Notes: generated by a model not told the origin, from the sequence alone. 32,000 nt of DNA from an uncultured Nitrososphaerota archaeon (GCA_964480775.1 CAYZRF010000017.1:1-32000), one strand, 5' to 3'; shown: positions 1-23,017, counted from the stretch's first letter. Numbers and translations are program-made.

Positions 1-591
1 GAGTTCTTTTTTCAACGAAGTAAGCCATAGCTCCATAGAAGATACTAACTTATCTCTAAACTTTTCATCTGGAACCCTAAGTACACTAACTAGCTTTCTT
101 GGATCTATGTCCATTATAACATTCCCTATTAATATGTCTGCTCCCTCTATTGTTTCTGCTGCATTCCCGGACGCTTTCTTTCCGTTTATCACTACATCGT
201 TTATCGGTTTATATTCGGCGTTGAGACCATATTTTCTGTATACATAAACTGTAGGCTGAAGATACTTCCTGTAAAAGGCTTCTACATCCATCGGTCCTTT
301 ACTCTTCACGATTAGATGATAGAACTGTTGCCCATCATCTAAATAGACTGCACCCCCTCCCTGTCTTCTTCTTACTATTGGTATTCCTTGAGATGAGCAG
401 TACTCCACATTCACTTCTTTGAAGACTATCTGATGGACACCTATGCAGACATAAGGTTCAGAAGGATAGCACAGAACTACGGTATTAGGCGATTTACCAC
501 TTCCTACGAATTTTGCTATTGATTCATAAACTGATTGAATGGAATAGCCGTCTAATGCACCTAGATCCAATAACCTCCACTTTTCTAGCAT
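1..591 (-). CDS. lplA: Lipoate-protein ligase A, catalytic domain (partial; 3' end runs off the window start)
   Basis: This gene is not in the supplied ORF track because it has no stop inside the window. My translation of the minus strand from the ATG at 591..589 stays open to base 1 (197 codons): MLEKWRLLDLGALDGYSIQSVYES...GIPIVRRRQGGGAVYLDDGQQFYHL...VINGKKASGNAAE...LVSVLRVPDEKFRDKLVSS. The RRxxGGGAVY.D.G motif and the GKK.SG lysine motif are BPL/LplA/LipB signatures. The VPDEKFRDK stretch matches my memory of Thermoplasma LplA. Confidence 0.85.
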   Translation of the reverse strand, partial: MLEKWRLLDLGALDGYSIQSVYESIAKFVGSGKSPNTVVLCYPSEPYVCIGVHQIVFKEVNVEYCSSQGIPIVRRRQGGGAVYLDDGQQFYHLIVKSKGPMDVEAFYRKYLQPTVYVYRKYGLNAEYKPINDVVINGKKASGNAAETIEGADILIGNVIMDIDPRKLVSVLRVPDEKFRDKLVSSMELWLTSLKKEL

Positions 592-647
592 CGGAGAAAC
601 CAATTGAGGTAATTATAAAGTGTTTTGTAGAATTAGTATGTTCCGAG

Positions 648-1088
648 TCACCTTGTAAGGATCTTAATTATGCTATAAACTATCAACAAACCAACGATTA
701 GAAAAACAACATCGTAAATTATCCCCGGATTAACTGTTTGGCCAATGTAAATTCCAAGAGCCCTTACAAGAATGTTTCTTAGATAAATGTAAAGTACGGA
801 CAAATCAACGAGGTTAAGTATATGACCTGTGATGTCTGACACCAATTCTGCCTTCTCAGGGATGCTCTCTTCATATATCATTGAAAGTGGCCTTCCTAGT
901 CCTTTGATAAGTCCTGCCATAATGAGAGCCAATAAAACCACTATGACATCCGAAACGGTAACGCCTAGCAGAGGAATTACGATGGTGCTTATTACGTAAA
1001 CCTTCATGAATACCCATAACAGAATGAAGGTAATCACTATCGCTGAAATCTGTCTGACAAGTAGCTTGCTACCTTCCTTTACTGACAC
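648..1088 (-). CDS. Small hypothetical integral membrane protein
   Basis: 146-aa ORF with a GTG start at 1088. It has several long hydrophobic segments (AIVITFILLWVFMKVYVISTIVIPLLGV, VIVVLLALIMAGLI, VVFLIVGLLIVYSII). I recognise no family. Confidence 0.45.
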   Translation of the reverse strand: MSVKEGSKLLVRQISAIVITFILLWVFMKVYVISTIVIPLLGVTVSDVIVVLLALIMAGLIKGLGRPLSMIYEESIPEKAELVSDITGHILNLVDLSVLYIYLRNILVRALGIYIGQTVNPGIIYDVVFLIVGLLIVYSIIKILTR

Positions 1089-1279
1089 ACAATCACCTAC
1101 TTCCTAAAGAAACGAGGAGATAAAAACATAACCAGGGACATAGAGAAATGGTTGTAGGAAGTGTCAATCTTCATCAAAAAATTAGAAATTAAAGACACAA
1201 ACTTAAACTCGAGCTTTAAAAATGAAAAATAAAAGAAATCTACCTTGAAAATGCTTTTAATCTCTGTTGGGCTAAGAAT

Positions 1280-1696
1280 TCATCTCTTCTTAAGGTCTTC
1301 TTTTATGAACTCGATGTATTGGTCTTTGCTCATCAAATTCTTCAAATCCTCATCCAAATTTGATGGCTTTATCTTAGCTATCCATCCCTCTCCATAAGGA
1401 TCCTCGTTAAGAAGGCTAGGCTGATCCTCTAGCTTTTCATTAACCTCCAAAACTTCTCCAGATATTGGGGACTCTATTGGTCCTGACCATTTTCCGCTCT
1501 CAATTGTACCTATCGGCTCATCTTGAGCTACCTCATCTCCAACAAGAGGTAGCTCAACGAAGACTATTTTCTTGGCGAGATACTGACCATAATCGGTCAG
1601 ACCAACAACAACGGTGTCGTCTTCTATTTTTGCATACATATTTCCTTTGGAGTAGTACAATCCTTCGGGTACCTTAAAGTCCTCTGCACTTGCCAT
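1280..1696 (-). CDS. gcvH: Glycine-cleavage H-protein-like lipoyl carrier protein
   Basis: The H-protein fold is recognisable: KVPEGLYYSKGNMYAKIEDD...VGLTDYGQ, lipoyl-lysine context IGTIESGKWSGPIESPISGEVLEVNEKL, and C-terminal DPYGEGWIAKIK. I place the start at the ATG at 1696 (MASAEDFKVPEGLYY) rather than the longest-ORF ATG at 1744, because the extra 16 residues have no H-protein counterpart. Confidence 0.85.
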   Translation of the reverse strand: MASAEDFKVPEGLYYSKGNMYAKIEDDTVVVGLTDYGQYLAKKIVFVELPLVGDEVAQDEPIGTIESGKWSGPIESPISGEVLEVNEKLEDQPSLLNEDPYGEGWIAKIKPSNLDEDLKNLMSKDQYIEFIKEDLKKR

Positions 1697-1889
1697 ATAT
1701 ATCACCAATTTAGTGAGTTCAAGGGAAAGAATAAAACCTTTCATAAGTTCGAACCTTTACAGTGAATTCTTAGTTAAGGGCGAGATTGTTGCAAAATGTG
1801 TATTTCAAATTGAGTAGTTGATCAGTTAAACTCAAACCCCTTAATTTGAAACTGTTGAATTTTTAACTGATTGAATTTACCTCAAGGCT

Positions 1890-3944
1890 GTGAACACAGA
1901 GAACGTCCTCTTCAGATTCGTAGCTCATGTGGTACCGTACTTAACATTAGGGACTCTTATAGTAGGAATCGCTCTAAAAGCAAGAAATTGGCTTAAAACT
2001 GGAACCTGGCCTAAAGCAAGGAGTTCTTTAAGTAAGTGGCTCTCTCATTTTTTGAAGAGATCTGCTTCTAATCTAATCTTGTTCTCTAAAATATACAAAC
2101 AGAGGAAGTTCTTCTGGTTTCTAAGTCTAGGCTTTCACGTGACCGTATTTATGATATTGTTCGGACACCTTAGGGGTTTTGGGGTTTGGTCAAAAGAAAT
2201 TCTTCAAAAAGTGGGCGCTAACTTCACTCATTTTATGATTGAGACGTTACCACTTTACCTCGGAATACTTTCCACAATTCTAATAGGCGGGTTGCTATTC
2301 TATAGACTCGCTAATAAAACACTTAAACTACAATCAGAGTTAGAAGACTACATAACAACTACTTTAGTTCTTCTAACAGTTGCTTCCGGTACTGCTATGA
2401 GGCTACTTCCTCCAGAATCGTTCAATCCAATGAAAATAGAATTCTTACCTGGTATTATCCTTAGGATTGAGAAAACACCAAATATACCTTTCTTTTTACT
2501 TCATATCTTATCCGCCCAGCTTCTCATAATGTATCTACCGTTCAGCAAGCTTGTCCATATAATAACGTCAGTAGTGAATGTAGCATACTCATCAATTGAG
2601 GATAAAGCAGAAGAATTTACTCCCTACGTTACTAAATGTGGAGAAAAATTAGAAATTAAGGGTAAGGAAGACGCTGCTGATAGAATTGATTTATCTGCTC
2701 TGCCAGGGAAGTTTGTACTTGCCCTTGACACATGTGTAGCATGCAGTAATTGCACTCTAAATTGTCCGACCTATAGTTTATCAGGAGAAAAAGCCCACAT
2801 ACCAGGTGTAAGACTCAAAGGTATACATAAGGCGTATTATCAGCAATCTCCGCTCTCCAAAATCCTCGGTTTAACGATAAGAAGGCAAACTTTAGAAAAA
2901 ATGATCTGGGAATGTGCTTTATGCGGTTACTGCAGCGAAAGTTGCCCATTGGAAATAAAGACAGATTCTATCTACCTACTACTGAGAATAGCAATGACAA
3001 GCGCAACTTGGACTCCAGAACCTCTAATTGATTTTTCTAATATCGTTAAAGAGACTCACAACCCTCTTGGTAGAGACAATAAAGAAAGAACTAGGTGGAT
3101 AAAGTACAGGCTTATAAGAAATAAGAAAATTGTTGAAAAGCTTGGTTCTGAAGCTGCTCCCTATTACTTCGAACTAACCGATGAGGATCTGATAAAAGAC
3201 AAGGCTGAAACAGTATACTTTGTGGGTTGCATTGCCTCGTTCTTCAGAAGCCTTTCTAGAGTTCCAGATGCGATGGTTCACATTCTAAAAGCAGCAGACG
3301 AAAACTTCACAATTCTTGGGGAAGAGGAGTGGTGTTGCGGATATCCTTTGCTATTGGCTGGAGATTTTGAAGGTTTCAAAAGGGCAGCATTACATAACAT
3401 TGAAGCAATAAAAGCCAGAGGAGCCAAAAAGGTGGTGTTTACGTGTGCTGGGTGTTATAAGACGTTCAAACACTTATACACCAAACTGTTGGGATTTAAA
3501 CCTGAATTCAAATTACTTCACTCTTCTGAGTTATTACACGAGCTGTATATAAAGGGAAGACTCAGATCAATCAAACCTAGGATCAAAGTAACGTATCATG
3601 ATCCTTGTGATATAGGAAGACATGATCACATATATCTAGAACCCAGGGCAGTGATGAGGTTTGCGGGCTGTGATTATCTTGAAATGGAAAAAGCGAAAAG
3701 AAATAGCTTCTGCTGTGGAGGAGGTGGCTTGCTTAAGCTTTCAAACCCTGAGCTTAGCACAAAAATTGCTATAGAAAGAACAAAGCAAGCAGCAATGACG
3801 GGAGCCGAATTTATTGTTACAGCCTGCCCTTCCTGTGAGATTACATTACGAGAAGGAATTCAGGCCCTTAAAGGTAAAAATCTCAAAGTCTTGGATATAG
3901 TAGAAGTTGTAGCAATTCAAACAGGTTTACTTCCCTTATCCTGA
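1890..3944 (+). CDS. Fusion of a NarI/DsrM/HdrE-type membrane cytochrome b with an HdrD/DsrK/GlpC-type CCG iron-sulfur protein (HdrED / DsrMK / EMO-like)
   Basis: GTG start at 1890. The N-terminal ~230 aa contain about 5 hydrophobic helices with paired His (LGFHVTVFMILFGHLRG; LLHILSAQLLIMYLPFSKLVHII, a NarI-family PF..LVH motif). The middle carries two ferredoxin motifs (CVACSNCTLNCP; CALCGYCSESCP). The C-terminal part has two CCG-type cysteine-rich domains (VGC...CCGYPLL...TCAGC; HDPC...FCCGGGG...TACPSC). Confidence 0.85.
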   Translation: MNTENVLFRFVAHVVPYLTLGTLIVGIALKARNWLKTGTWPKARSSLSKWLSHFLKRSASNLILFSKIYKQRKFFWFLSLGFHVTVFMILFGHLRGFGVWSKEILQKVGANFTHFMIETLPLYLGILSTILIGGLLFYRLANKTLKLQSELEDYITTTLVLLTVASGTAMRLLPPESFNPMKIEFLPGIILRIEKTPNIPFFLLHILSAQLLIMYLPFSKLVHIITSVVNVAYSSIEDKAEEFTPYVTKCGEKLEIKGKEDAADRIDLSALPGKFVLALDTCVACSNCTLNCPTYSLSGEKAHIPGVRLKGIHKAYYQQSPLSKILGLTIRRQTLEKMIWECALCGYCSESCPLEIKTDSIYLLLRIAMTSATWTPEPLIDFSNIVKETHNPLGRDNKERTRWIKYRLIRNKKIVEKLGSEAAPYYFELTDEDLIKDKAETVYFVGCIASFFRSLSRVPDAMVHILKAADENFTILGEEEWCCGYPLLLAGDFEGFKRAALHNIEAIKARGAKKVVFTCAGCYKTFKHLYTKLLGFKPEFKLLHSSELLHELYIKGRLRSIKPRIKVTYHDPCDIGRHDHIYLEPRAVMRFAGCDYLEMEKAKRNSFCCGGGGLLKLSNPELSTKIAIERTKQAAMTGAEFIVTACPSCEITLREGIQALKGKNLKVLDIVEVVAIQTGLLPLS

Positions 3945-4183
3945 CTTCTCTTTTCACATAAATTTCGTTGCAATTAAACTATTGACATCTATTGGCAAAA
4001 TAATTTACAAGTCTCTAAATCCCATTGTGCTTTTCAGGGAACAATTTTATATTGTGAAGCAATCATAAAATCCGATTTTAGCCCATGTGGTCCGATTTCA
4101 AGGACAAAGTTATAGCTCTGGAGGGCTACAATAACTTTGGCAGATTTTATCTCTAAAAAAAGCTTAAGAAGGAGCTGCTCAGG

Positions 4184-6808
4184 ATGAATGAACGATTTTC
4201 ATACTTATCGGCTCTTGGCCGCTTGGATCTACCGTTCGCCTTGACCGCATCTCCTCTTATTTACGGGTTTATTGCAGCCACCCCATTTTATCCGAAAAAA
4301 GTGGTGTTAGTCGCTTCGGCAATTCTAATTTTTCTATCTCTAAAGAAAGGGGTTCTCGCTCTTGGAATCGCGGCACTTCTTTCTACATTTTCAATCTTTT
4401 ATCAATTTGGGGGTTTGGGCTTTGTATATCTCTTAGCTGTCGGATTAGTTGTAGCTGCTGTAGCTTCCTATGGACTGGAGGCGCTTATCTTATTAGATGC
4501 TATTTACTTCAGCTTAACGCCATTTTTCTACCTTACTCCAGCACTGATAATCTTCGGGGGCTATGAATTTGGAAGTAATTCGGGACGAAATCAAGGGCTC
4601 ATAGCCTCTCTAGTTTGTCTAGGACTAGCTGCTTTATTGGGGAATCCGATGAGAAATCTATTTCCATCAATAATGGTGGATCTGCCTGTTTTAGAAGCAA
4701 CGAAACCTCTTGTTAATGAGTTTACACCAAAAGTCCTTCTTGAGGCTCTTAAATATGGGATAGAGAAGGGGATCGACCCTCAAATCTCCAAACAAATTAA
4801 TTTGGCCCTATCTCGCATATTTCTTGAAGATTTGAAACCATATGCAATAATTCTTATCTGGTCTTTAATGGGTTACATATCTGGATATATTTCAAATAAG
4901 AGGGAAGGATACTCTCGCCCCCTGCTTGGCTCTTTTGTTGGTAGTCTAACCTTAGCGCCTCTTGTTCTACTCGATAAAAACTACGCGAACATAGTTTTTA
5001 CAACACTTCTACTTTCAATAGGGATATTAAGTACAAGATACTCCATAACTCTATTAGAAAGAAAGAAAGCCGGCAAAAAAGCAGAAATCTCACTTAAAAA
5101 ACACCCAATTGGTGTTAGGGAAATATTAGAAGCGAAGAAGGTAACTCTTAGGGACATGGATCCCGAAAGACTCTTCAAAGGTGTAGCGAACTATTCAGAA
5201 ATAAAGCAAGAGTTAACAGAAGCCATAATTTGGCCTTTGATTAGATCAGACCTAGCAAAAGAGTATGGAGTTGAAATGGCTAAAGGAATTCTACTCTTTG
5301 GACCTCCCGGATGTGGGAAAACCCTATTGATGAGAACACTTGCAGAGAATACTGGACTATCCTTTATTCACGTCAGACTGGGCGAAATATTAAGTAAATG
5401 GTATGGAGAAAGCGAGAGAAACTTGTTAACTCTATTTGAGAGAGCTAGAGCGATGAAACCATGTATAATCTTCTTAGACGAATTAGATTCCATTGGAAAA
5501 AGAAGAGATATGTATGCTTCGGATGACGTGACTCCCAGGCTTCTAAGTTTAATGCTTAGCGAGATGGATGGAATGAAATATGAGGCAGGAATAATTGTTG
5601 TGGGCGCAACTAACATGCCAAACCTTTTAGATCCAGCCCTACTAAGGCCTGGAAGATTTGATAAACTAATATACGTTCCTCCTCCAGATTTCAAGGCTAG
5701 ATTTGAGATTCTAAAGTCTAAATGCATCAATCTACCGCTAGCTGAGGATATAGACTTCGAATATCTGGCAAAAATTACAGAAAGATTTAGTGGAGCAGAT
5801 ATAGCGGCTCTTTGTTCTGAAGTAAGTAGAATGGTTGCTTTTGAGACCATTAAAACAGGAAAAAAGAGAAAGATAACTCAAGAGGACTTCATTGAAGTGA
5901 TAAGATCTATGAAACCTAGTATTTCGATGCAAATGTTAGATTCTTTCCAGAGATTCAAATTAGATTATGAAAGAAGCAGGATTAAGAGAAAAAGAGAGGA
6001 AAAGAAAATCAGCTGGGATGATATTGGAAACTTGGAAGAGGTCAAGACAAAACTTTTAGAGAGCATAGAGCTTCATTTGAAGCACTCTGATTTAATGGAA
6101 AAGTACAAATTAGAACCTATAAGGGGGATTCTACTCTTTGGACCTCCCGGATGTGGGAAAACCCTATTGTCCAAGGCAGTGGCTGAAGAACTGGAGATGC
6201 CTTTTATCTACATAACAGGATCTGATGTGTTGAGCGAGGGCTTAACAAAAGCAATGAATAAGATAAAAAAGGTGTTTTACAGGGCAAAAGAAAACGCTCC
6301 TTCAATTATATTCATCGATGAGCTTGATGAGTTAGCTCCAGTGAGAGGAACAGGCTTTCCAGGTCTTGTCGGAGAGCTTCTTTCTAATATGGATGGCATT
6401 AGGGAATTTAAGGGAGTTGTAATTCTTGCGGCCTCTAACAGACCATGGGAAGTGGATCCTGCCCTTCTGAGGCCTGGTAGGTTTGATTACATTATGTACA
6501 TCCCACCTCCAAACAAGGAAGCCCGAAAAGAGATCTTCTGGGTCCATTTAAAGGGAGTCCCTACAAAAGAAATAGATTTTGAGGAGCTGGCAAATCTTTC
6601 AGAAGGATATAGCGGAGCAGATATAGCTGCTGTGTGTAGAGAAGCTAAACTCCTTGCTATTAGAGAAAAAATAGAAAAATCGGGAGAGGGGCTTGTTGCA
6701 ATGGATCACCTGAAAAAAGCTCTTCACAAGGTGAATCCTTCTCTAGACAAAAGTTTGCTTGCAAAATACGAAAAATTTGCCCAAGATTTAGGACAAAAGC
6801 TTCATTAA
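4184..6808 (+). CDS. Membrane-anchored tandem AAA+ ATPase (Cdc48/VCP-like D1-D2 with a polytopic N-terminal membrane domain)
   Basis: AAGGAG lies 12 nt upstream of the ATG. The N-terminal ~300 aa are strongly hydrophobic with multiple predicted TM helices. Two AAA modules follow. Each has Walker A GILLFGPPGCGKTLL, a Walker B (IIFLDELD / IIFIDELD) and SRH/Arg-finger DPALLRPGRFD. D1 has the pore loop SKWYGESE; D2 has none. Confidence 0.85.
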   Translation: MNERFSYLSALGRLDLPFALTASPLIYGFIAATPFYPKKVVLVASAILIFLSLKKGVLALGIAALLSTFSIFYQFGGLGFVYLLAVGLVVAAVASYGLEALILLDAIYFSLTPFFYLTPALIIFGGYEFGSNSGRNQGLIASLVCLGLAALLGNPMRNLFPSIMVDLPVLEATKPLVNEFTPKVLLEALKYGIEKGIDPQISKQINLALSRIFLEDLKPYAIILIWSLMGYISGYISNKREGYSRPLLGSFVGSLTLAPLVLLDKNYANIVFTTLLLSIGILSTRYSITLLERKKAGKKAEISLKKHPIGVREILEAKKVTLRDMDPERLFKGVANYSEIKQELTEAIIWPLIRSDLAKEYGVEMAKGILLFGPPGCGKTLLMRTLAENTGLSFIHVRLGEILSKWYGESERNLLTLFERARAMKPCIIFLDELDSIGKRRDMYASDDVTPRLLSLMLSEMDGMKYEAGIIVVGATNMPNLLDPALLRPGRFDKLIYVPPPDFKARFEILKSKCINLPLAEDIDFEYLAKITERFSGADIAALCSEVSRMVAFETIKTGKKRKITQEDFIEVIRSMKPSISMQMLDSFQRFKLDYERSRIKRKREEKKISWDDIGNLEEVKTKLLESIELHLKHSDLMEKYKLEPIRGILLFGPPGCGKTLLSKAVAEELEMPFIYITGSDVLSEGLTKAMNKIKKVFYRAKENAPSIIFIDELDELAPVRGTGFPGLVGELLSNMDGIREFKGVVILAASNRPWEVDPALLRPGRFDYIMYIPPPNKEARKEIFWVHLKGVPTKEIDFEELANLSEGYSGADIAAVCREAKLLAIREKIEKSGEGLVAMDHLKKALHKVNPSLDKSLLAKYEKFAQDLGQKLH
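5288..5329 (+). repeat. Copy 1 of a 42-nt perfect direct repeat inside the AAA+ gene (Walker A of D1)
   Basis: attctactctttggacctcccggatgtgggaaaaccctattg is identical at 5288..5329 and 6128..6169. The offset is exactly 840 nt (280 codons, in frame). The flanking bases diverge immediately on both sides. Confidence 0.9.
6128..6169 (+). repeat. Copy 2 of the 42-nt perfect direct repeat (Walker A of D2)
   Basis: Same 42-mer as 5288..5329. Other motifs conserved between D1 and D2 (for example the PALLRPGRFD region, ~5638 vs ~6461) differ at several synonymous positions. Confidence 0.9.
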
Positions 6809-6957
6809 TGTTATCAATGCTACAAATAATTGATCATTTAGTCGCTAAATGTCTTAAAGTGTAAGAGATGTCTAATAGATACTTCTAGTAAACTATTGGA
6901 GGAGATATCACGGCAGAATAGTTTTATTAATGCAAAACACATTAGGGCTGAGAGGCA

Positions 6958-7548
6958 TTGGACTCGCTATTCGACAAGATGTACTTGGATTTCTATGCAG
7001 AAAAGGGTAAACTTATGTGGGGACAGTCTCCTTCGCCCGGTGTAGTTCGTTTCGCTGAATTCTTGAAAAGCAAAGAAATGTCTGACGCCATCGTATTGGA
7101 TTCTGGTTGCGGAGAGGGAAGAAATAGCATTCATCTAGCAAAACAGGGGTTCAGGGTTTACGGCTTGGATATATCGGCTATTGCGATAGATAAAGCTAGG
7201 GAATGGGCTGAAAAAGAGGGTTTATTGGAAAAGATATGGTTTGAAGTCGGTGATGTTTCACAAATGGAGTTTAGAAATGAGTTCTTCGACGCCGCCATAG
7301 ACATCAACACCATAAATTTTGTCAAATCAAGAAGAAGATATGTCGCTGAGCTTTCAAGAGTACTTAAACCAAAAGGATATCTGTTTATTGAAACTTTATC
7401 AGAGAAGAGCAAAGAATACGGAATACCAAGGGAAGAACTTGACTGGCTGATAACTCCTTTCTTTGAAATTTTAGAAATAGAGGAGTTTAACGCCCCTTGG
7501 GGAGGACATAACCTTCTACATTATAGAATCTTAGCTCAGAACAGATGA
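6958..7548 (+). CDS. Class I SAM-dependent methyltransferase (TehB/Methyltransf_11-25-like)
   Basis: Motif I VLDSGCGEGRNSIHLA, followed by VYGLDIS, VGDV and the post-motif LKPKGYLFIE. The longest ORF starts at a TTG at 6958; an in-frame ATG at 6979 is an alternative start. Confidence 0.75.
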   Translation: MDSLFDKMYLDFYAEKGKLMWGQSPSPGVVRFAEFLKSKEMSDAIVLDSGCGEGRNSIHLAKQGFRVYGLDISAIAIDKAREWAEKEGLLEKIWFEVGDVSQMEFRNEFFDAAIDINTINFVKSRRRYVAELSRVLKPKGYLFIETLSEKSKEYGIPREELDWLITPFFEILEIEEFNAPWGGHNLLHYRILAQNR

Positions 7549-7711
7549 ATGATTATAACTGATTTATTCGTAAAAAGGTAGCTCGTACTTCATCTTTTTC
7601 AATTAACTAGTTTTGTCGAGATAAGACATTTTTCTCTTCTCATAGGGTGGTTTTGGATTCAAAAACGAGATCTCCTAAAGTTTTTGCTATAGCCTTTCTC
7701 TCCTAAACTAG

Positions 7712-7727
7712 GAAAAAATTTAATTAA
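7712..7727 (+). promoter_or_regulatory. Candidate archaeal BRE/TATA element for the acyl-CoA dehydrogenase gene
   Basis: A purine-rich gaaaaaa is followed by tttaattaa, 26-34 nt upstream of the ATG at 7753. That spacing fits a leaderless or near-leaderless archaeal transcript. This is sequence pattern only. Confidence 0.3.
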
Positions 7728-7752
7728 TCCCAATAAAGAGCATAGGGTCACT

Positions 7753-8985
7753 ATGGACTTTAGTTTCTCTGAGGAGGAGGAGCTTTTCAGAAGTAGCGTT
7801 AGAGAGTTCTGCGAGAAGTATATAGCCCCAAAATGGATAGAAATTGATGAAGCCAGGGAAGGAACCCCTGTAGATCTAATTAAAACAATGGGACAGCAAG
7901 GACTCTTTTGTATCCCGGTAAGCGAAGAATATGGAGGAATGGGTGGAACGCTCACTATGGCAGCCATAGCTGTAGATGAAATGGCCTACTACGATCCCTC
8001 AATAGCTATCCCAGTTTATACCCTTCTTGTCAACGGATGGCCCATGTTACTTGACCTTTATGGAAGTGAAGAAGCCAAATCAGAGATTTTACCAAAAGTA
8101 GCTGCTGGAGAAGCTTTCTTTGGAATTGCAACAACTGAACCCCAAGGAGGTTCAGATATCGCTGGTACAAGGGTAACTGCTAGAAAAGAAAATGGAAAAT
8201 GGATTTTTAATGGAGAAAAAGCCTATATCAGCGGGGTGAAGGAGACATTAGAACTTCCTTGGGGAGGAGGCTTTTTCTTGATCGCAAGAACTGGTCCAAA
8301 AGAAGCTGGACACAGAGTTCTCACAACTTTTGCGTTCTTGGTCAAGAAAGACGGAGAAATAGTCAAAGGATTTGAACCGACCTATTATGAAGATATTGGA
8401 AGAGCGGGCATCTCCTGCGGAGGCTTTATGCTCAACGACGTTGAAGTAGACGACAAGTATAGGCTTGGAGATGAGAACAAGGGATTTTACGTAAATATGG
8501 AAGGCTTTAACGTAGCAAGGATACTTGTAGCAGCAGCAGCCATAGGTTCTGCTAGATGGGCCCTTGATCAGGCCAAAGAATGGTTTAGAGTGAGAAAACT
8601 CTTTGGTAGGTATATTTCCAGCTTCCAAGGAGTCAACTTCAAGTTCGCAGAGCTTTATGCAAAGCTGGAAGCGGCTAGGCTCATAGTTTACAAGGCCGCT
8701 TGGCTCGCTGACCAGATATACATTTACAAGAACCCGGCTTACAGTCCCAGAGACCTTAACGTTCCCGTTGCTATGGCAAAGATGATGGGACCAGAGGCTG
8801 CTGCGGACATATATGAGGAGGTCATGAAGTGGCACGGAGCATACGGCTACACAAGGGAGTGCCCAATCTTCAGAGGTTGGTTAGGAACTTTCTCCTACGT
8901 GATAGGAGCAGAAGGAGCTCAAAACATCATGAGATACATAATAGCCCGTGATACAATAGGTGCAGAATACGTTAGACCAGGCTAG
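7753..8985 (+). CDS. acd: Acyl-CoA dehydrogenase
   Basis: 410 aa with the typical ACAD layout: N-terminal helical domain (EEEELFRSSVREFCEKYIAP), FGIATTEPQGGSDIAG FAD/substrate motif, GEKAYISG, middle beta domain, and C-terminal helical domain ending IGAEGAQNIMRYIIARD (catalytic Glu region). Confidence 0.9.
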   Translation: MDFSFSEEEELFRSSVREFCEKYIAPKWIEIDEAREGTPVDLIKTMGQQGLFCIPVSEEYGGMGGTLTMAAIAVDEMAYYDPSIAIPVYTLLVNGWPMLLDLYGSEEAKSEILPKVAAGEAFFGIATTEPQGGSDIAGTRVTARKENGKWIFNGEKAYISGVKETLELPWGGGFFLIARTGPKEAGHRVLTTFAFLVKKDGEIVKGFEPTYYEDIGRAGISCGGFMLNDVEVDDKYRLGDENKGFYVNMEGFNVARILVAAAAIGSARWALDQAKEWFRVRKLFGRYISSFQGVNFKFAELYAKLEAARLIVYKAAWLADQIYIYKNPAYSPRDLNVPVAMAKMMGPEAAADIYEEVMKWHGAYGYTRECPIFRGWLGTFSYVIGAEGAQNIMRYIIARDTIGAEYVRPG

Positions 8986-9040
8986 ATCCAAAAATAGATA
9001 GGGAAAAGCAGAGTTGAACACTCAACCAACTTTCTTACCC

Positions 9041-9064
9041 CTTTTCCCTTTTTTATGCCTTTTC
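9041..9064 (+). terminator. Candidate oligo-T archaeal terminator downstream of acd
   Basis: T4, T6 (9049..9054) and T4 runs lie about 55-80 nt after the TAG at 8983..8985. They are preceded by a weak 5-bp hairpin, gttga-acac-tcaac (9013..9026). Pattern only. Confidence 0.3.
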
Positions 9065-9251
9065 TACCTATCTTCTCTATATTTTCAATTCCTCCCTTTG
9101 TCTTATGAGCTTATATCAAATTTTAGAGATATTGCTTTGGAAAACATTTCTTTTGCCTAGGAATGCCCTCAAGCCTGCTCATTAACACTTCTATATCCTC
9201 AAAATATAGATAAAGAAAAGAGAAGAGGGAAAAGATGTGCCTGGTGCTAAC

Positions 9252-10220
9252 TCATCCTTCTTTCTCAGAGACCTCTTTCAGCGCCTTCATCAGTTCTGGA
9301 ATAACTTCATAGAGATCTCCTACAATGCCGTAATCTGCGGACTTGAAGATCGGGGCCTCTGGATCTTTGTTTATCGCTACTATTACCTTTGAGTCCTTTA
9401 TGCCTGCAACGTGTTGTATTGCTCCGGAAACCCCTACTCCTATGTAAAGCTTTGGTTTTATTGCTACTCCTGAGAGGCCAATCCATTCTGTGTACCATCC
9501 CAGGTCAGCTGCAATTGGTCTTGTGCATCCTACACATCCTCCAAGCATTTCAGCCAGTTGCTCCAGCATCCGAAAGTCCTCTTTCTTCTTTATACCTCTT
9601 CCTCCAAGCACAACGACCTCTGCTTCCTCTACCCTAACAGCTTTGATTTCTTTCGGTTTGAATTCAATGAGTTTTAGGCTTGGCTCTGGCAACTCCAAGC
9701 CGAGTTCGACAATTTCCCCTTTACCTCCAGAGGGGGCCTTTTCATACCTCCCTGGCTTCAGCAAAACTACCGCTGGTGTGCTCTTACATCTCTCTGTAGC
9801 GACCGCCATTCCAGCGTAAGCTGCACGTTTCGCTACGACGCTCCCATCGTCACCAATGTCAACTTCCGTGCATTCCGACATACAGCCTGCATTGAGCCTA
9901 GCTGCTAACCTTCCAGCCAGCTCCTTGCCTCTCTTAGTTGCGCCAATTAGCAGCACCTTTGGTTTTTCCTGCTTGGCAATGGTCTCGATGGCAGCAGCAT
10001 AGGACACAGGATCGAATCTCTCTAAGGAAGCATGATCTATAAGATAGACTTTATTTGGTCCGTGTTCAGACAGCTCTTCAGCCATATCCTTTACTCCATG
10101 TCCCAAGATGACTGAAGCTAAAGGAACATTCAGCTTCTCTGATAATCCTTTTCCAGCCGTTAAGAGCTCGAGACTAACGTTTTTATTCTCTGAATAAACC
10201 CAAACCTCGTTTTCAGCCAC
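9252..10220 (-). CDS. etfA: Electron transfer flavoprotein, alpha (large) subunit
   Basis: 322 aa. The C-terminal FAD domain has [64 protein letters not shown], the classic ETF-alpha signature. It overlaps etfB by 8 nt. Confidence 0.9.
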
Positions 10221-11010
10221 CTAGAACTCCCTCCCTAATCAAAGCTTCAACGAGCTTTTTCACCGCTTCGCTTGCTGGCATTTCCTCAAATATGACTCCC
10301 TTTCTCTTTATCTCGGGAGCTTTAGCATCTAAAATTTGCACTGCTGAGCCATTTTGGCCAAGTAATTCGCTGGGTATACCGAGTTCAGATGCATTCAGCA
10401 TTTTCATGGGCTTTTTAGAGGCTCTCATTATTGCCGGTAGGGGTGGAATTCTTGGATCGTTTATCTCTCTCGTTACTGTGAGTAGGGCAGGCAATTTGAC
10501 CTCCACAACCTCATATCCGTCCTCTAGGTCTCTTTCGACTACTATTGAATCGTCTTTGACCTCTATGATTCTCTTTACGTAAGCTACTTGGGGAATTCCT
10601 AGCAATCCAGCTAACCTAGGGCCTACTAAAGAGGAGTAACCATCACTCGTAGCTTCTCCGCATATTATCAGGTCGAATCCTTCCAGCTTTTCAATGGCCG
10701 TTTTTAGAACGAGGGACGTTACAAGAGTATCTATGTCATTGAACAAGGGATCGACGAGCAAATAAGCTTCGTCTGCACCCATTGCAAGAGCTTCTCTGAG
10801 TCCCATCTTTGCGCTTTCTGGACCAACTGTTAAGACCGTTACATGCCCACCGTGCTTTTCCTTGAGTCTAATAGCTTCTTCTATTGCCCTTTTATCGACA
10901 TCGCTGAGTTTCATCTTTGCTCCGGCCAATATTGGCTCTCCAGTTGACGAATCAAACCTAAGCTCGCTCACATCAACAGCATACTTAGCACAGGTGATTA
11001 CTCTCAACAC
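10213..11010 (-). CDS. etfB: Electron transfer flavoprotein, beta (small) subunit
   Basis: 265 aa with a GTG start. The ETF-beta layout is present: VITCAKYAVD, LSDVDKRAIEEAIRLKE, DLIICGEATSDGYSSLVGPRLAGLLGIPQV, LPALLTV. It lies directly upstream of, and overlaps, etfA. Confidence 0.9.
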   Translation of the reverse strand: MLRVITCAKYAVDVSELRFDSSTGEPILAGAKMKLSDVDKRAIEEAIRLKEKHGGHVTVLTVGPESAKMGLREALAMGADEAYLLVDPLFNDIDTLVTSLVLKTAIEKLEGFDLIICGEATSDGYSSLVGPRLAGLLGIPQVAYVKRIIEVKDDSIVVERDLEDGYEVVEVKLPALLTVTREINDPRIPPLPAIMRASKKPMKMLNASELGIPSELLGQNGSAVQILDAKAPEIKRKGVIFEEMPASEAVKKLVEALIREGVLGG

Positions 11011-11338
11011 ACTCTTGATCTCCGATTGTTTAGTTATAAGTAATTATGTCGGCAGGTTCGACTGGGCCAGATGGAGAGATTTCTATTATTAAAATAGTGA
11101 GATTATTGGAAGTGACAGGTAATTAAGATGTTCTCAGATTTCTGGCTAACTTGTTGGTTACCATGGTTCCAGTAGCTTCGGCCCCAAGATCGGAATTTTC
11201 ATCGTTTTCAAATTGTAATTTCACTATGTGGTGCAGCTGTAGATTTCTGTACCCCTTTCTTATAGCTATAAGAATAAGCTAACAAATTAATAATCTAAGA
11301 AAAGAGAATTTTATCCAAAAATTTCTAATTTCTCATAG

Positions 11339-12649
11339 TTAGGATTCAGGGACTCCCATCTTTTCTTTTAGATAAATCAAAGTGCTTGTGGCAGCGGCTC
11401 TGGCATGAGAAATGCTACTCATAATATCCATTGGACCGGTGCAGCATCCTGACAGAAATACACCATCGATTTGTGTCTCATTAACTGATCGTAGAGGATC
11501 TAAAACCTTAAAGAAAGTATCTCCATTTATTTGAACGCCCAGCTGGTTTCCAACATTCCTAGCATGGCTTGAACCAGTTACTCCAGGAATCAAGATGACG
11601 AGGTCGACATTTAACTCCTCTAACTTCCATGTTCCTGCGTCAAAGATCCTTAAGGTTAACTTTCCCTCTTTATCTCTTATCTCAGAAGGAATTCCGTGGA
11701 GCATAACGATGCCACTGTCTCTAGCGGTCTGATAAAATTCCTCGTGCATTCTTCCAGAAGCTCTTATGTCGTTGTAACAGACGTATACCTCTACCTCTTC
11801 CCTATATAACTGCTTTATCTCGTATGCTTGTTTTAGTGCTGTCATGCATCCTATCCTGCAGCAGTGCTTTAGAAATCGTCTGTCTCTTGAACCAGCACAT
11901 AAGACAAAGGCAACTGATTTGGGTCTCTTCCCATCAGATGGTCTTACCACCTCTCCTTTAGTTGGCCCTCCTGGATCTAGCATCCTTTCTAATTCCAAGC
12001 TCGTAATTATGTTCTTATATCGGCCATATCCCAGCTCCTTTACCCTTGAAATGTCAAATAACTCCATCCCAGTGGCTAAAATCAAAGCCTTAACTTGGAT
12101 TTTTGTTTCTTCTGGTCTTTCATCTAAGTTTATTGCATCATTTGGGCAGGCCTCGACGCAAGCATAACATTCCTCTCCTTTGAAATGAAGACATGCTCTT
12201 TCATCTATTGCAAATCCCTCCGGAAAGGGCCTCACAGAAGGATAATCTATAGCCTTCCTTTTTCCTATACCGAGTTCATATTCTCTATTGTACTCGACTG
12301 GGCATACTTCAGAACACTTCCCGCATGAGATGCACTTGTTTATGTCCACATGCCTAGGCTTCTTAATGATTTGAAGTTCAAAACCCTCTTCAGTCTTCTT
12401 TATAGCTTTAATTTCAACATTTGTCATTATCTGAATATTCTCTAAGTTTCTTAGCTCCTTGAACATCCCATCTAGTATGCTTGATGTTGGATCAAGCGTC
12501 GGGAACACTTTGCTTAAAAGCGAAACATTTCCTCCTAAGCTGAAGTTTCTCTCAAGCAGGTAAACTCTCACACCTTGTTTTGAGAGGCATAGGGAAGACT
12601 CAATGCCAGCTACTCCTCCTCCCACAACTGCTACCGGTCCTATAACCAT
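11339..12649 (-). CDS. hdrA: Short HdrA-like FAD/iron-sulfur protein (thioredoxin-reductase fold with an inserted 2x[4Fe-4S] ferredoxin domain)
   Basis: 436 aa. It has dinucleotide fold VAVVGGGVAGIESSL, inserted ferredoxin motifs CISCGKCSEVCP and CYACVEACP, HdrA-type VLCAGSRD...HCCRIGCM cluster motif, and C-terminal GVFLSGCCTGPMDI. The N-terminal FeS domain and C-terminal ferredoxin domain of ~650-aa methanogen HdrA are absent. Confidence 0.85.
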   Translation of the reverse strand: MVIGPVAVVGGGVAGIESSLCLSKQGVRVYLLERNFSLGGNVSLLSKVFPTLDPTSSILDGMFKELRNLENIQIMTNVEIKAIKKTEEGFELQIIKKPRHVDINKCISCGKCSEVCPVEYNREYELGIGKRKAIDYPSVRPFPEGFAIDERACLHFKGEECYACVEACPNDAINLDERPEETKIQVKALILATGMELFDISRVKELGYGRYKNIITSLELERMLDPGGPTKGEVVRPSDGKRPKSVAFVLCAGSRDRRFLKHCCRIGCMTALKQAYEIKQLYREEVEVYVCYNDIRASGRMHEEFYQTARDSGIVMLHGIPSEIRDKEGKLTLRIFDAGTWKLEELNVDLVILIPGVTGSSHARNVGNQLGVQINGDTFFKVLDPLRSVNETQIDGVFLSGCCTGPMDIMSSISHARAAATSTLIYLKEKMGVPES

Positions 12650-12753
12650 ATCTATCGGCCTCTACTCATTGTGTATTATTGCTTGGTTACTCATCACTGA
12701 CACTGGATCTTTTTATGGTTAATCCTTAATCTTTTGAGGGCAGGAGGGGACAG
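12650..12753. promoter_or_regulatory. Divergent hdrA / hdrCB promoter region
   Basis: This 104-nt spacer separates divergent starts. On the plus strand, AT-rich ctttttatgg (12708..12717) and SD-like GGAGGGG sit 5 nt before the hdrC ATG at 12754. On the minus strand, aataatac (plus coordinates 12672..12679) lies 23-30 nt upstream of the hdrA ATG. Pattern only. Confidence 0.3.
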
Positions 12754-13287
12754 ATGGCAAGCGGTATGTCTAGCAGCCTATTGGATCTGATGACTCTAAA
12801 AAGAGCAGACTGGAGTATTCTGAAGGAAATAGCTAAGAAAATTGGAGAACAAAACCCAAAGAGTTGCTTTGAATGTACGAAATGCACCAGCGGTTGTCCA
12901 GCAGCAGAATTCTTGGAGATGTATCCCCACAACATAGTGTGTGCCGTCAGGGAAGGACTAGCAGAGGAGATTATCAACTCTGATGTGATCTGGAGGTGTG
13001 CTCTCTGTCTTAAATGCAAGGAAAGGTGTCCTCAAGAAGTAGCGCCTTCGGATCTCATAATAGCTCTAAGAAATATCGCCACGGACCGGGGAGTTGGCGT
13101 TCCCGAAGACCTAAACTCCGTTCTCAACTCGATCATGGAAATTGGATACATTCATCCCCCTATGAAGGCCTTCTCGAGAAGGCTAAGGAAAACTTACACG
13201 CGGGAAGATCTTGGCCTGAAAGTTCTGAAGGGACCTAAGGATATGGATGCTTTCAGGGAGGCTCTGATGGCTGCCTTCGAAGAGTAA
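12754..13287 (+). CDS. hdrC: Heterodisulfide reductase subunit C-like (2x[4Fe-4S])
   Basis: 177 aa with CFECTKCTSGCP and CALCLKCKERCP. It is coupled to hdrB through a TAATG stop/start overlap at 13285..13289. Confidence 0.85.
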   Translation: MASGMSSSLLDLMTLKRADWSILKEIAKKIGEQNPKSCFECTKCTSGCPAAEFLEMYPHNIVCAVREGLAEEIINSDVIWRCALCLKCKERCPQEVAPSDLIIALRNIATDRGVGVPEDLNSVLNSIMEIGYIHPPMKAFSRRLRKTYTREDLGLKVLKGPKDMDAFREALMAAFEE

Positions 13288-14183
13288 TGGGAGGGTTTCG
13301 ATTGGGAAGCGATGGTCCGAGATATGCTCTCTATCTGGGATGTATGATAGCGAATGAGGAGTATGCATATGAGATGTCCACTAGAGAAATCATGAGGGAG
13401 CTTGGCGTTGAATTAGTAGATCTAGAAGGAGAAAGCTGTTGTGGTAGTCCAATCCGCAGCTTGAACACAAGATTATGGCTATACCTTGCAGCCAGAAACC
13501 TTTCTCTTGCCGAAAGAACGGGATTAGATGTTCTTTGTCTCTGTAGTGGGTGCTTCGAATCCCTGCTCGAAGCAAAAAATTTCCTAGAGAACAGCGAAAG
13601 TCTAAAGAAGTGGGTTAACGAGGCGTTATCTCTTGAAGGGCTTGAGTATACAGGCAGGTGTAAGGTGAAGCATCTTGTCCAGGTTTTGCATGACGACTTG
13701 GGCGTTGAAAGACTGAGAGAGCACGTAAAAAATGAGCTTAAAGGTCTAAAATTAGCATCTCATCCAGGGTGTCATCTGCTTAGGCCAAGCAAGGTGCTTA
13801 GAGCAGATGATCCAGAGGATCCGAGGAAACTGGATGAACTTATCGAAGCAAGCGGCGCTGAGGCTATCGACTATCCAGAAAAACTAGATTGTTGCGGAGC
13901 AGGACTGCTTCTAATGAAACCAGAGGGGACTATGAGCTTTGCTGGGACTAAACTAAAGGCTTTGGCAGCCAGAGAAGTGGATGGTTTGGTAACGGTGTGT
14001 CCTGCTTGTCATGTCGTGTTCGATAAAAGACAGGGGGCCATAAGCAGACAGGTGGGCGTCGATAAGAGGATTCCAATAATTTACTACCCACAGCTACTGG
14101 GACTGGCCTTTGGTATAGAGTCTGAGAGGTTGGGAATCCATCTGAATAGCAGCCCTGTGGAGGAAATCCTATCCAAGATATAG
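13287..14183 (+). CDS. hdrB: Heterodisulfide reductase subunit B-like (two CCG domains)
   Basis: 298 aa: LGC...ESCCGSP...CSGC and HPGCH...LDCCGAGLL...VCPACH, the duplicated CCG cysteine pattern of HdrB. Confidence 0.9.
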   Translation: MGGFRLGSDGPRYALYLGCMIANEEYAYEMSTREIMRELGVELVDLEGESCCGSPIRSLNTRLWLYLAARNLSLAERTGLDVLCLCSGCFESLLEAKNFLENSESLKKWVNEALSLEGLEYTGRCKVKHLVQVLHDDLGVERLREHVKNELKGLKLASHPGCHLLRPSKVLRADDPEDPRKLDELIEASGAEAIDYPEKLDCCGAGLLLMKPEGTMSFAGTKLKALAAREVDGLVTVCPACHVVFDKRQGAISRQVGVDKRIPIIYYPQLLGLAFGIESERLGIHLNSSPVEEILSKI

Positions 14184-16577: not shown

Positions 16578-16583
16578 TCTACT

Positions 16584-23004: not shown

Positions 23005-23017
23005 AGGGGTGGAGACT

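Follow-up and report, generated by a model that had tools for sequence, protein, structure and literature searches.

A lipoyl carrier and its ligase beside HdrDE-type and HdrABC-like genes in an uncultured Nitrososphaerota archaeon: a putative variation on the LbpA-Hdr theme

In the type II sulfur-oxidising heterodisulfide reductase-like (sHdr) system, the genes shdrC1B1AHB3-etfAB-emo are accompanied by lbpA, which encodes a lipoyl carrier, and by the gene of a dedicated ligase, sLpl(AB) (PMC11094781, PMC6067878). This type II sHdr-LbpA system is the closest described relative of the genes treated here, which occupy the first 14 kb of a 32,000-nt stretch of DNA from an uncultured Nitrososphaerota archaeon (CAYZRF010000017.1:1-32000; G+C about 38-45%), referred to in its full length as the window. 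They encode a lipoate-protein ligase, an H-protein-like lipoyl carrier, a membrane fusion of cytochrome b and CCG domains, an electron-transferring flavoprotein (ETF) and the heterodisulfide reductase (Hdr) subunits HdrA, HdrC and HdrB. Genes were called by listing of open reading frames (ORFs) with Pfam and NCBIfam scans. From the comparisons below we lean, if only slightly, towards a reading in which the dithiol/disulfide couple of the lipoyl group would be turned over by an HdrDE-like, quinone-linked membrane enzyme, and probably also by the soluble HdrABC. The window would then encode a variation on the LbpA-Hdr theme, namely an LbpA-like/Hdr system of an anaerobe, free of sulfur transferases, whose quinone module is HdrDE-type.

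Among enzymes with related parts, CoM-S-S-CoB, the heterodisulfide of coenzymes M (CoM) and B (CoB), is linked to methanophenazine by HdrDE, and DsrC to menaquinol by DsrMK. For Culexarchaeia, Kohtz et al. (2022; PMC9723716) raised the speculation that the unknown disulfide for HdrB might come from a GcvH whose gene lies in an Hdr/hydrogenase cluster, so that the system is not wholly undescribed, as the initial annotation of the window, made from its sequence, had thought possible. A literature search on GcvH, lipoate or lipoamide together with HdrD, CCG domains or menaquinone found no such system beyond sHdr and the Culexarchaeia remark. The annotation had also named a precedent that combines a GcvH-like carrier, LplA, Hdr-like proteins, EtfAB and EMO, and the type II sHdr gene content matches it (PMC11094781). 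Its parts list of seven components within 14 kb was likewise correct in every gene identity and coordinate. The genes of this part of the window are:

1-591, minus strand: LplA-family ligase, N-terminal 197 amino acids (aa) (PF21948, E 1e-37); the gene extends past the window start
648-1088, minus strand: hydrophobic 146-aa protein between carrier and LplA, without a family match
1280-1696, minus strand: H-protein-like lipoyl carrier, 138 aa (PF01597, E 5e-42)
1890-3944, plus strand: HdrDE-type fusion, 684 aa (Pfam NarI, Fer4_8 and 2xCCG)
4184-7548, plus strand: Cdc48-type double AAA+ ATPase and SAM methyltransferase, which separate the HdrDE-like gene from the acyl-CoA dehydrogenase gene
7753-8985, plus strand: acyl-CoA dehydrogenase (ACAD; Pfam Acyl-CoA_dh N, M and C domains)
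9252-10220, minus strand: etfA (Pfam ETF/ETF_alpha)
10213-11010, minus strand: etfB (Pfam ETF/ETF_alpha)
11339-12649, minus strand: short HdrA, 436 aa (NCBIfam HdrA2, 423 bits, below cutoff)
12754-13287, plus strand: hdrC, 2x[4Fe-4S] subunit (Fer4_8/Fer4_17)
13287-14183, plus strand: hdrB, with two complete CCG motifs (2xCCG)

Ligase and carrier are separated from their neighbours by 190 and 145 bp, the HdrDE-like gene and that of the carrier diverge, and hdrA, hdrC and hdrB fall within 12.5 kb. The likeness to type II sHdr-LbpA is considerable, for HdrC, HdrB, HdrA, EtfAB, a haem b/CCG membrane protein, a lipoyl carrier and an LplA-type ligase are all present, in the same chromosomal order, with a carrier motif of the form ESGKWxGP and a ligase about 40% identical. 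The differences are as many. The window carrier lacks the cysteine pair, and the window lacks TusA, DsrE, rhodanese, sHdrH and the single-CCG sHdrB3; sHdrA has about 350 aa and no inserted ferredoxin, whereas the window HdrA has a Fer4 insert and is methanogen-like; and the type II EMO (ETF:menaquinone oxidoreductase) has lost the cysteines of the first domain and keeps a His, whereas the window enzyme has ten Cys and no such His. The window genes are, moreover, on both strands, with ACAD, methyltransferase and Cdc48 genes inserted, and their host is an anaerobic Wood-Ljungdahl/β-oxidation archaeon. The single cluster of shdrC1B1AHB3 with etfAB that defines type II sHdr is thus absent from the window; among the loci compared, which are cited by number, L136 served as its positive control.

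The membrane fusion joins a five-helix di-haem cytochrome b (NarI/HdrE-like), an HdrC-like 2x[4Fe-4S] domain and an HdrB/HdrD-like domain with two CCG motifs, which is also the single-polypeptide architecture of EMO/EtfD (a haem b domain, two cubane clusters and two NCB/CCG domains). A Foldseek search with an AlphaFold2 model (pLDDT 84.9) gave Mycobacterium smegmatis EtfD (9OJN) as best match (TM 0.66), with HdrB at TMt 0.65-0.73 and NarI at TMt 0.57, and a profile search against the PDB returned 9ojn (416 bits), HdrB, HdrC and NarI; because the two agree, the fold can be assigned to the EtfD/EMO/HdrDE family. The predicted haem ligands H83, H93, H205 and H223 are conserved in the window protein and in those of L012, L008, L014 and L015. 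NCBIfam DsrK (73 bits, far below cutoff) and DsrM gave weak matches.

In solved EMO and EtfD structures the non-cubane clusters form an electron wire and are not catalytic, while a catalytic Hdr has ten Cys and an open cavity (PMC13083937; 10.64898/2026.08.18.745454). His583 of M. smegmatis EtfD (MsEtfD) completes the cluster coordination and Thr539 replaces a Cys (PMC13083937); in the EMO of S. aciditrophicus (SaEMO), the CoM site is filled by His534, and Gly535 stands in for Cys81 (preprint 10.64898/2026.08.18.745454). The window fusion has all ten catalytic cysteines of Hdr (C447, C482, C483, C519, C522, C573, C608, C609, C646 and C649), with none of the lost or replaced Cys that alter the distal cluster of an EMO, and has Gly521 at the position of the EMO/EtfD His (SaEMO H534, MsEtfD H583). 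Because of these two features the fusion is HdrDE-type rather than EMO-type, with a predicted catalytic-type site. Its earlier description as "EMO-like or HdrED" therefore stands as to fold and architecture, which are those of EtfD/HdrDE, and falls as to the EMO type.

An alignment of 127 HdrD-like domains extends this distinction. The His is absent from the window protein, from that of L012, from all members linked to GlcD or HdrA and from all but one of those linked to a carrier or LplA; it is present in every ETF-linked homologue examined (L177, L114, the type II sHdr EMOs and sHdrB3) in all but three of the P-hits of unknown context, and in the EtfD-like P-hits, that from Streptomyces included. 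L177, which is an ACAD-CoA transferase-etfBA-EMO operon, holds an ETF-linked homologue at 29% identity. Ordered by how far their HdrD domains lie from that of the window protein, the ETF-linked homologues take places 113-126 of 127, and for the membrane domain clear homologues were found only in the fusions of the carrier-rich archaeal clusters L014 and L015 (39-40%, 141-160 bits). The window HdrB, too, has ten Cys and no His at that position.

With the Methanosarcina-type HdrDE the window enzyme thus shares a five-helix cytochrome b, four conserved His, two cubane clusters and a ten-Cys non-cubane domain without a blocking His; it differs in being one fused polypeptide instead of two subunits, in being encoded beside a lipoyl carrier and ligase, and in that homologous operons occur in Chloroflexota, which are not expected to make CoM or CoB. 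With EMO/EtfD (S. aciditrophicus EMO, M. smegmatis EtfD) it shares fold and domain order, and ETF and ACAD genes lie within 6.3 kb of it; it is set apart by Gly521, by the retention of every distal-cluster Cys and by an identity of 18-29%. DsrMK(JOP)-DsrC offers another likeness, a NarI-type cytochrome b with an HdrD-like CCG subunit acting at the membrane on a thiol group borne by a small protein and not by a free cofactor; here, however, the carrier is a lipoylated H-protein and not DsrC, and there are no dsr genes.

The carrier has the H-protein fold and the lipoyl-lysine hairpin, and its lysine, within GTIESGKWSGPIE, aligns with the lipoyl-Lys of the solved GcvH structures 1ONL and 1DXM. 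The motif reads ESGKWSG, as against the canonical ESVKAxS. Two motif classes, ESVKA(A/V)S (K-A) and ESGKW(S/V/T)G (K-W), are found among the aligned homologues, both criteria having been derived in this analysis, that for K-A from gcvT/P-linked sequences; carriers linked to gcvT/P or to E2/Lpd all have K-A/T/S at the motif, and the K-W subfamily includes the LbpA of sulfur oxidisers. In a neighbour-joining tree of 236 carriers (115 after dereplication) the K-A/K-W bipartition misplaces 1 of 115, and no more than two were misplaced in 77 of 100 bootstraps. By motif and tree position the window carrier is a member of the K-W (LbpA-like) H-protein subfamily, and not a canonical glycine-cleavage H protein.

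LbpA has been defined by conserved Cys near the N- and C-termini, some archaeal LbpAs being exceptions (Cao et al. 2018). The Cys-pair carriers of the sHdr-like clusters L133, L136, L145, L147 and L163, which have an N-terminal GC(N/D)IPE cysteine and a C-terminal Cys, also bear the K-W motif. The window carrier has no Cys at all and so lacks that pair, and in the tree its clade (21 sequences) stands apart from that of the Cys-pair LbpAs (11 sequences). Further LbpA traits that it does have are a place on the non-GcvH side of the tree and co-encoding with hdr-like genes and a specific LplA-type ligase; a sulfur transferase (TusA, DsrE or rhodanese) accompanies it neither in the window nor in the flanks of its relatives. 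The canonical GcvH shares with it fold and hairpin and differs in motif, in tree partition, in linkage to gcvT/P and in lacking a dedicated ligase and Hdr-type neighbours.

Gene neighbourhoods separate the two classes as well. Eighty metagenome loci were gathered around carriers with the generic motif Nx[DS]PY[GE][EK]GW, of which 20 were K-W and 58 K-A. A CCG protein is a neighbour of 10/20 K-W and 1/58 K-A carriers (Fisher p 1.4e-6), LplA of 9/20 and 1/58 (p 7.9e-6), and gcvT/P of 0/20 and 22/58 (p 4.6e-4). Placement of the carrier relative to GcvH and LbpA, which the initial annotation had called for, thus puts it on the K-W/LbpA side by motif, tree and linkage. The annotation had named a gcvT/gcvP just upstream as evidence against its view; neither the window nor, over 6-9 kb past LplA, any of the relatives contains one, and the carrier is therefore not in a glycine-cleavage operon.

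Near the carrier, the predicted LplA-family ligase at 1-591 is dedicated to it. The window includes 197 aa of its catalytic domain; orthologs have 367-374 aa, and in the full-length one of L002 an LplB-like C-terminal domain comes after the catalytic domain. The window ligase scores 122 bits against TIGR00545, below cutoff; its identity is 43-46% to Chloroflexota ligases that adjoin K-W carriers and 40% to the ligases of the type II sHdr-like clusters L136 and L147. A circular permutation relative to sLpl(AB) was considered and rejected, the L136 and L147 ligases also being catalytic-domain-first. The 146-aa protein between ligase and carrier matched no Pfam or NCBIfam family; it has about 4 transmembrane segments (four overlapping hydrophobic stretches in a hydropathy scan) and L002-L009 and L012 have it in the corresponding place (65-86% identity), but L010 does not. 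As a guess, it might be a factor for lipoate or octanoate uptake or for anchoring. A few kb beyond LplA, relatives have a small gene resembling those of ECF transporters, and a radical-SAM gene near LplA in relatives, considered as LipS1/S2, was rejected as PA0069/Rv2578c-like.

The soluble Hdr proteins resemble those of methanogens. HdrA retains the FAD/thioredoxin-reductase core and, inserted, a 2x[4Fe-4S] ferredoxin domain (Fer4 at residues 94-180), without the N- and C-terminal domains of the methanogen protein; its alignment covers residues 147-565 of 5ODC/9SFI. Against methanogen HdrA (9SFI/5ODC) the score is 331 bits, and against sHdrA 6TJR it is 104 bits. Although it had been called truncated, the gene is an intact, conserved short form, since the L006 ortholog (74% identical) has the same MVIGPVAV start and in-frame stops lie upstream in the window. 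HdrB matches 5ODC_B over its full length (228 bits), with ten Cys and CSGC and CPAC as its CxxC motifs, and is 37-41% identical to the HdrBs of carrier-linked clusters in Geothermarchaeota, Chloroflexota and the metagenome locus L097. The two-CCG HdrB and 2x[4Fe-4S] HdrC of methanogen HdrABC are thus present, and a full-length HdrA is not. On these scores HdrA and HdrB are methanogen-like, not sHdr-like; a comparison with both groups, as first proposed, places them much closer to methanogen Hdr, yet below the NCBIfam CoB-CoM equivalog cutoffs (HdrB TIGR03288, 278.9 against 345; HdrC TIGR03290, 79.9 against 160; HdrA, 423 against 1100). In many carrier-linked bacterial clusters HdrA is split in two, with a short N-terminal ORF (about 60-200 aa) and, a few codons downstream of it, a longer one (L020 15771-17732, L022, L045, L053, L064, L067, L069, L082; L093 4397-7654), a pattern expected of an in-frame UGA selenocysteine codon.

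Comparable gene sets recur in distant phyla. A scan of one genome per GTDB species for relatives of the fusion gave 79 HdrDE-centred loci (1.10 Mb), which were then searched by tblastn with the window proteins; adjacency was counted from the tblastn matches because the greedy ORF caller mis-called genes in high-GC loci. An H-protein homologue occurs in 31/79 loci (within 2 kb in 19), LplA in 18/79, a carrier or LplA in 35/79 and HdrA within 2 kb in 27/79. Genomes carry one or two H-protein genes per several Mb, so that fewer than one would be expected by chance in 1.1 Mb. All 13 of the best matches outside the lineage (L014-L026) have a carrier and/or LplA. ETF occurs in 1/79, a close relative only, which speaks against counting ETF, as had been done at first, within the core that is conserved between phyla.

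Relatives of the fusion in Chloroflexota, a Clostridia metagenome-assembled genome (MAG) and Geothermarchaeota adjoin K-W carriers, LplA and HdrA/B/C, and none adjoins ETF. Carriers beside NarI-HdrD or HdrD-like genes with LplA or HdrA are K-W; those beside gcvT-gcvPA-gcvPB (L075) or E2-Lpd-LipM-LipA are K-A. In Chloroflexota (L017, L020, L024) the order is gcvH-narI-hdrD-(heme o synthase-like)-lplA-hdrB-hdrC-...-hdrA-mvhD-nuoE-nuoF, the gcvH of L020 and L024 being K-W. Ca. Scotarchaeum (Geothermarchaeota, L015) has mvhAGD-hdrABC beside an HdrDE-like fusion, an HdrD-like protein and three carriers, the Clostridia MAG (L083) has glcD-hdrD-carrier-hdrD-hdrA-(MvhD/[FeFe]-hydrogenase fusion)-lplA, and L093 has glcD-hdrD-hdrA-carrier(KW)-hdrC-hdrB. 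L091 shows LipS2-LipS1-LplA-LipT-like beside three carriers, three HdrD-like genes, GlcD and OsmC. Of the sHdr-like clusters in the carrier-centred sample, L136 and L147 read sHdrA-(263 aa)-single-CCG HdrB3-etfBA-EMO-carrier-carrier-LplA, and L133, L145 and L163 have LipS1/S2. The protein-bound lipoamide linked to CCG/Hdr modules that was proposed initially thus gains strong comparative backing from the K-W linkage to CCG proteins and LplA and from these cross-phylum neighbours, its function continuing to be read from genome content.

Several features of these loci are recorded here in their own right. Pairs of a GlcD-like flavoprotein and an HdrD-like protein stand directly beside K-W carriers in L014, L083, L091/L092, L093 and L106; 2-hydroxyacid-type dehydrogenases may use the lipoyl carrier as electron acceptor there. 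A second link between CCG domains and lipoate is a fusion of about 865 aa (GlcD-like FAD, FeS and two CCG domains) beside canonical K-A GcvH in Syntrophales, Syntrophorhabdales and Dehalococcoidales MAGs (L021, L031, L046, L073, L075, L039); its other neighbours are E2-Lpd-LipM-LipA or gcvT-gcvH-gcvPA-gcvPB, and either an L-protein-like partner or a metabolic link between glycolate and glycine is conceivable. In L014, L015 and L091/L092 (Geoarchaeota, Geothermarchaeota and Nitrososphaerota MAGs) the HdrDE-like fusion and the carriers are bordered by OsmC-family genes and by genes for a large protein that has an AbrB/MazE-type domain, and some of the extra carriers there read ESGRK, in which the lysine may be shifted by one residue. 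A UbiA-family gene lies between hdrD and lplA in L017, L019, L020 and L024, the L024 copy scoring 266 bits against the 246-bit heme o synthase cutoff, which hints at a modified haem in the NarI-like subunit of Chloroflexota.

The Culexarchaeia belong to the same kind of setting, being non-methanogenic Thermoproteota of the same habitat type with GcvH among Hdr genes (Ehe/HdrA2B2C2; PMC9723716), and their genomes have a second GcvH beside gcvT (PMC9723716). Their cluster differs in including a membrane [NiFe]-hydrogenase, SdhA and CdhA; lplA is 12 genes away, which made an origin of the window in Culexarchaeia seem unlikely when it was considered, and no HdrDE-like fusion is described. The account of Kohtz et al. 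(2022) is without an analysis of carrier subfamily, of cross-phylum distribution or of the active site.

The exact carrier sequence also occurs on a 39-kb NCBI contig, and exact look-ups of the source contig gave only a 3.3-kb Logan contig with hdrA'-hdrC-hdrB-ech. MAGs from hydrothermal sediment, with Thermoproteota or Korarchaeota as their labels, supply the close relatives (75-89% identity); B15_G15, from Guaymas, is one of them. Constant among them is the core carrier-(146-aa membrane protein)-LplA. An HdrDE-like homologue is divergent from the carrier gene in most, is absent in L010 and has been deleted together with Cdc48 in L006 and L007, where a 75-aa remnant is left (L006 8381-8605, L007 2858-3082). 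ETF/ACAD and hdrA are still nearby in B15_G15 and L006, with extra genes inserted, and ETF is not nearby in L008 and L010. The seven genes are therefore not a rigid unit, and the co-localisation in relatives on which the first view depended does not hold throughout. Between hdrA and etfB, L006 (1533-3891) and L012 (about 16000-18700) have genes for a pyridine-nucleotide-disulfide oxidoreductase of 398-419 aa, a small PF07849 protein and an AsnC-type regulator, all absent from the window.

The etfAB genes lie downstream of hdrA on the same strand, and etfA is 5.3 kb from the fusion gene with three unrelated genes between, an arrangement seen only in this lineage; ACAD, likewise, adjoins etfBA in close relatives only. 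The ETF is FixAB/clostridial-like, its best NCBIfam matches being FixB/YdiR- and AcrA-like, all below cutoff. We regard ETF and ACAD as a β-oxidation module in the vicinity that may or may not belong to the lipoyl/Hdr system.

Put together, the following mechanism may be envisaged. LplA would lipoylate the carrier, and the HdrDE-like enzyme would accept the carrier's dithiolane/dithiol couple at its CCG site as thiol/disulfide substrate, thereby coupling the carrier to the membrane quinone pool. The soluble short HdrA, HdrC and ten-Cys HdrB would probably turn over the same carrier and link it to low-potential carriers of the cytoplasm such as ferredoxin or F420. The result would be a lipoyl-protein redox shuttle between cytoplasm and quinone pool, the host being an archaeal oxidiser of acyl-CoA and acetyl-CoA. 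Genes for a luciferase-family Mer-like protein and an FrhB-like F420-binding FeS protein lie at window 22976-25117, 9-11 kb from hdrA; the FrhB-like protein is a candidate F420H2 input module for the short HdrA, which has no MvhD partner. The potentials are about -290 mV for lipoamide, -75 mV for menaquinone, -10 mV for acyl-CoA/enoyl-CoA and -140 mV for CoM-S-S-CoB. Given these standard values, oxidation of the dihydrolipoyl carrier by quinone would be exergonic and its reduction by ETF alone would not, so that a simple donor is a less likely role for ETF than that of a separate β-oxidation module or of a confurcation partner.

A number of points weigh against turnover of the lipoyl carrier by these Hdr-type enzymes. 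All functional links in it are drawn from genomes. Lipoamide is far more negative than CoM-S-S-CoB; for this reason the energetics of classical Hdr bifurcation are not simply transferable. The carrier-TM-LplA core persists in L006 and L007 despite loss of the HdrDE-like gene, and in L010 the carrier-LplA pair has unrelated neighbours, from which it follows that the carrier has a role not strictly needing the HdrDE-like enzyme. Half of the K-W loci (10/20) have no CCG neighbour, many of them on short contigs, and L095 has CBS proteins instead. HdrD-domain distances, tried as a test of a carrier-linked clade, gave 36-39% identity to members of every context; since they separate only the ETF-linked group, no orthology is claimed for the carrier-linked HdrD-like proteins. 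A lineage with MCR/ACR and CoM/CoB might give HdrABC its ordinary substrate. Finally, at 124.8-125.3 bits the window carrier passes the TIGR00527 GcvH equivalog cutoff of 115.85 and ranks with the most GcvH-like K-W carriers that were scored, and it could conceivably have a dual role in glycine cleavage. On the same model the gcvT-linked carrier of L075 scores 166.7, the Hdr-linked one of L097 135.1 and Cys-pair LbpAs 71-102; the sister model NF002270, which the window carrier also passes, is passed by 2/4 Cys-pair LbpAs, with a third 0.4 bits short. Because Cys-pair LbpAs and Hdr-linked carriers pass alongside gcvT-linked ones, the NCBIfam GcvH cutoffs do not discriminate and were dropped as a classifier.

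The genes could also be read otherwise. In one unlikely account the carrier dithiol would bind sulfane sulfur, as a persulfide or cyclic trisulfide, which the Hdr-type enzymes would reduce to sulfide or oxidise; the whole would be an anaerobic relative of sHdr-LbpA or of DsrC-trisulfide/DsrMK, serving sulfur or polysulfide respiration or disproportionation in hydrothermal sediment. The Guaymas origin of relatives is in keeping with this, as are the K-W motif common to the Cys-pair LbpAs, the 40% identity of the ligase to those of L136 and L147, and the colinearity of hdrB-hdrC-hdrA-etfB-etfA-...-HdrDE-like-carrier-LplA in the window with type II shdrC1B1-A-H-B3-etfBA-emo-lbpA-lbpA-slpl. The search for partners, however, told otherwise: no TusA, DsrE or rhodanese domain was found by Pfam scan in any window ORF of at least 80 aa, in keeping with the initial annotation, which had seen no dsrE/tusA-type genes, and none in the relatives' flanks. 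Room for small sulfur-transferase genes is also lacking, the gaps in 1-14.2 kb being under 330 bp and the two largest without a plausible small ORF. A carrier without Cys, an HdrA with an inserted ferredoxin and a score of 331 against 104 bits in favour of the methanogen protein, the lack of sHdrH and sHdrB3, and a membrane enzyme unlike the type II EMO with its lost first-domain Cys and retained His all argue the same way.

That the genes are juxtaposed by chance is, in our judgement, quite improbable. The fusion would then be an ETF:menaquinone oxidoreductase of β-oxidation, the carrier a GcvH with a salvage ligase, and HdrABC an enzyme for CoM-S-S-CoB or an unrelated disulfide. The EtfD/EMO architecture and fold, ETF and ACAD at 3.8-6.3 kb from the fusion in the window and B15_G15, and the true ETF-linked homologue of L177 would all suit this, and so would a carrier above the GcvH cutoffs and methanogen-like HdrA and HdrB; β-oxidation with the Wood-Ljungdahl pathway is, besides, a signature of alkane-oxidising archaea, which use CoM and CoB. 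It has to contend with Gly in place of the EMO/EtfD His and ten Cys kept, with the remote rank of the ETF-linked homologues, with ETF in 0/78 other loci against a carrier or LplA in 35/79, and with K-W carriers beside gcvT/P in 0/20 and no gcvT/P beyond LplA in relatives, while the GcvH cutoff, passed by Cys-pair LbpAs under NF002270, loses its force. Thiol stress defence, in which the Hdr-type enzymes would keep the carrier in the dihydrolipoyl state as donor to OsmC/Ohr peroxidases or thiol-dependent repair enzymes, seems very unlikely. OsmC/Ohr peroxidases are reduced by lipoylated proteins, and in L015 and L091/L092 the HdrDE-like fusion or K-W carriers have OsmC genes as immediate neighbours; in L014 such genes are nearby. 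Lipoylated proteins have been noted as antioxidants (PMC10332631). The window, however, has no OsmC or peroxiredoxin, the 80 carrier-centred loci gave no OsmC matches, and the HdrABC-MvhD-NuoEF/hydrogenase operons of Chloroflexota and L015/L093 resemble energy metabolism.

The remainder of the window agrees with the acyl-CoA oxidation and tetrahydromethanopterin/acetyl-CoA decarbonylase-synthase surroundings first described, as Pfam and NCBIfam scans confirm. Downstream of hdrB follow enoyl-CoA hydratase, 3-hydroxyacyl-CoA dehydrogenase and thiolase/DUF35, and after these Mtd, Mer-like, FrhB-like, CooC, CooT, RACo and CdhC/D/E. The hydratase and 3-hydroxyacyl-CoA dehydrogenase ORFs overlap by 56 nt (window 14964-15019), and the hydratase start is probably further downstream, the identical Logan contig L001 calling 262 aa against 277. 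A four-CBS-domain protein is encoded after the β-oxidation genes (17940-18839, minus strand); in L095 a K-W carrier is followed by four CBS-domain genes (8597-11564), a resemblance that may be coincidence. Rfam and tRNA scans of the window gave no matches, and a sigma-70 promoter/terminator scan, whose model is not applicable to an archaeon, was at background.

Hdr-like genes are among the commonest unexplained redox modules in anaerobes without CoM or CoB, and the identity of their disulfide substrate is a long-standing question. The locus and its cross-phylum relatives offer a candidate disulfide in a lipoylated H-protein paralogue with its own ligase. A wider proposition, which we put forward tentatively and hold to be doubtful, is that K-W-bound lipoamide would be a general disulfide/dithiol substrate of catalytic Hdr-type enzymes (HdrD/HdrDE-like, the HdrB of HdrABC, GlcD-HdrD pairs) in non-methanogenic anaerobes of both domains, with the carrier as a redox shuttle linking soluble flavin-based bifurcating or confurcating HdrABC and dehydrogenases with a membrane HdrDE-like quinone oxidoreductase. 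If so, the K-W carrier would play the role that CoM-S-S-CoB has in methanogens and DsrC in sulfate reducers, with the window as an archaeal example coupled to fatty-acid/acetyl-CoA oxidation.

The same comparisons supply simple diagnostics, namely a K-W instead of a K-A motif at the lipoyl-lysine, and CCG domains that have ten Cys and lack a blocking His, which split such carriers from glycine-cleavage H proteins and catalytic HdrD-type enzymes from the ETF-dependent EMO/EtfD. Close homologues of the window carrier are annotated "GcvH" in their source annotations, and the labels "GcvH" and "EMO" would mislead reconstructions into a false glycine cleavage or ETF:quinone coupling. Should the proposed mechanism prove true, the role of lipoate would extend from the sHdr-LbpA of sulfur oxidisers to the energy metabolism of strict anaerobes.

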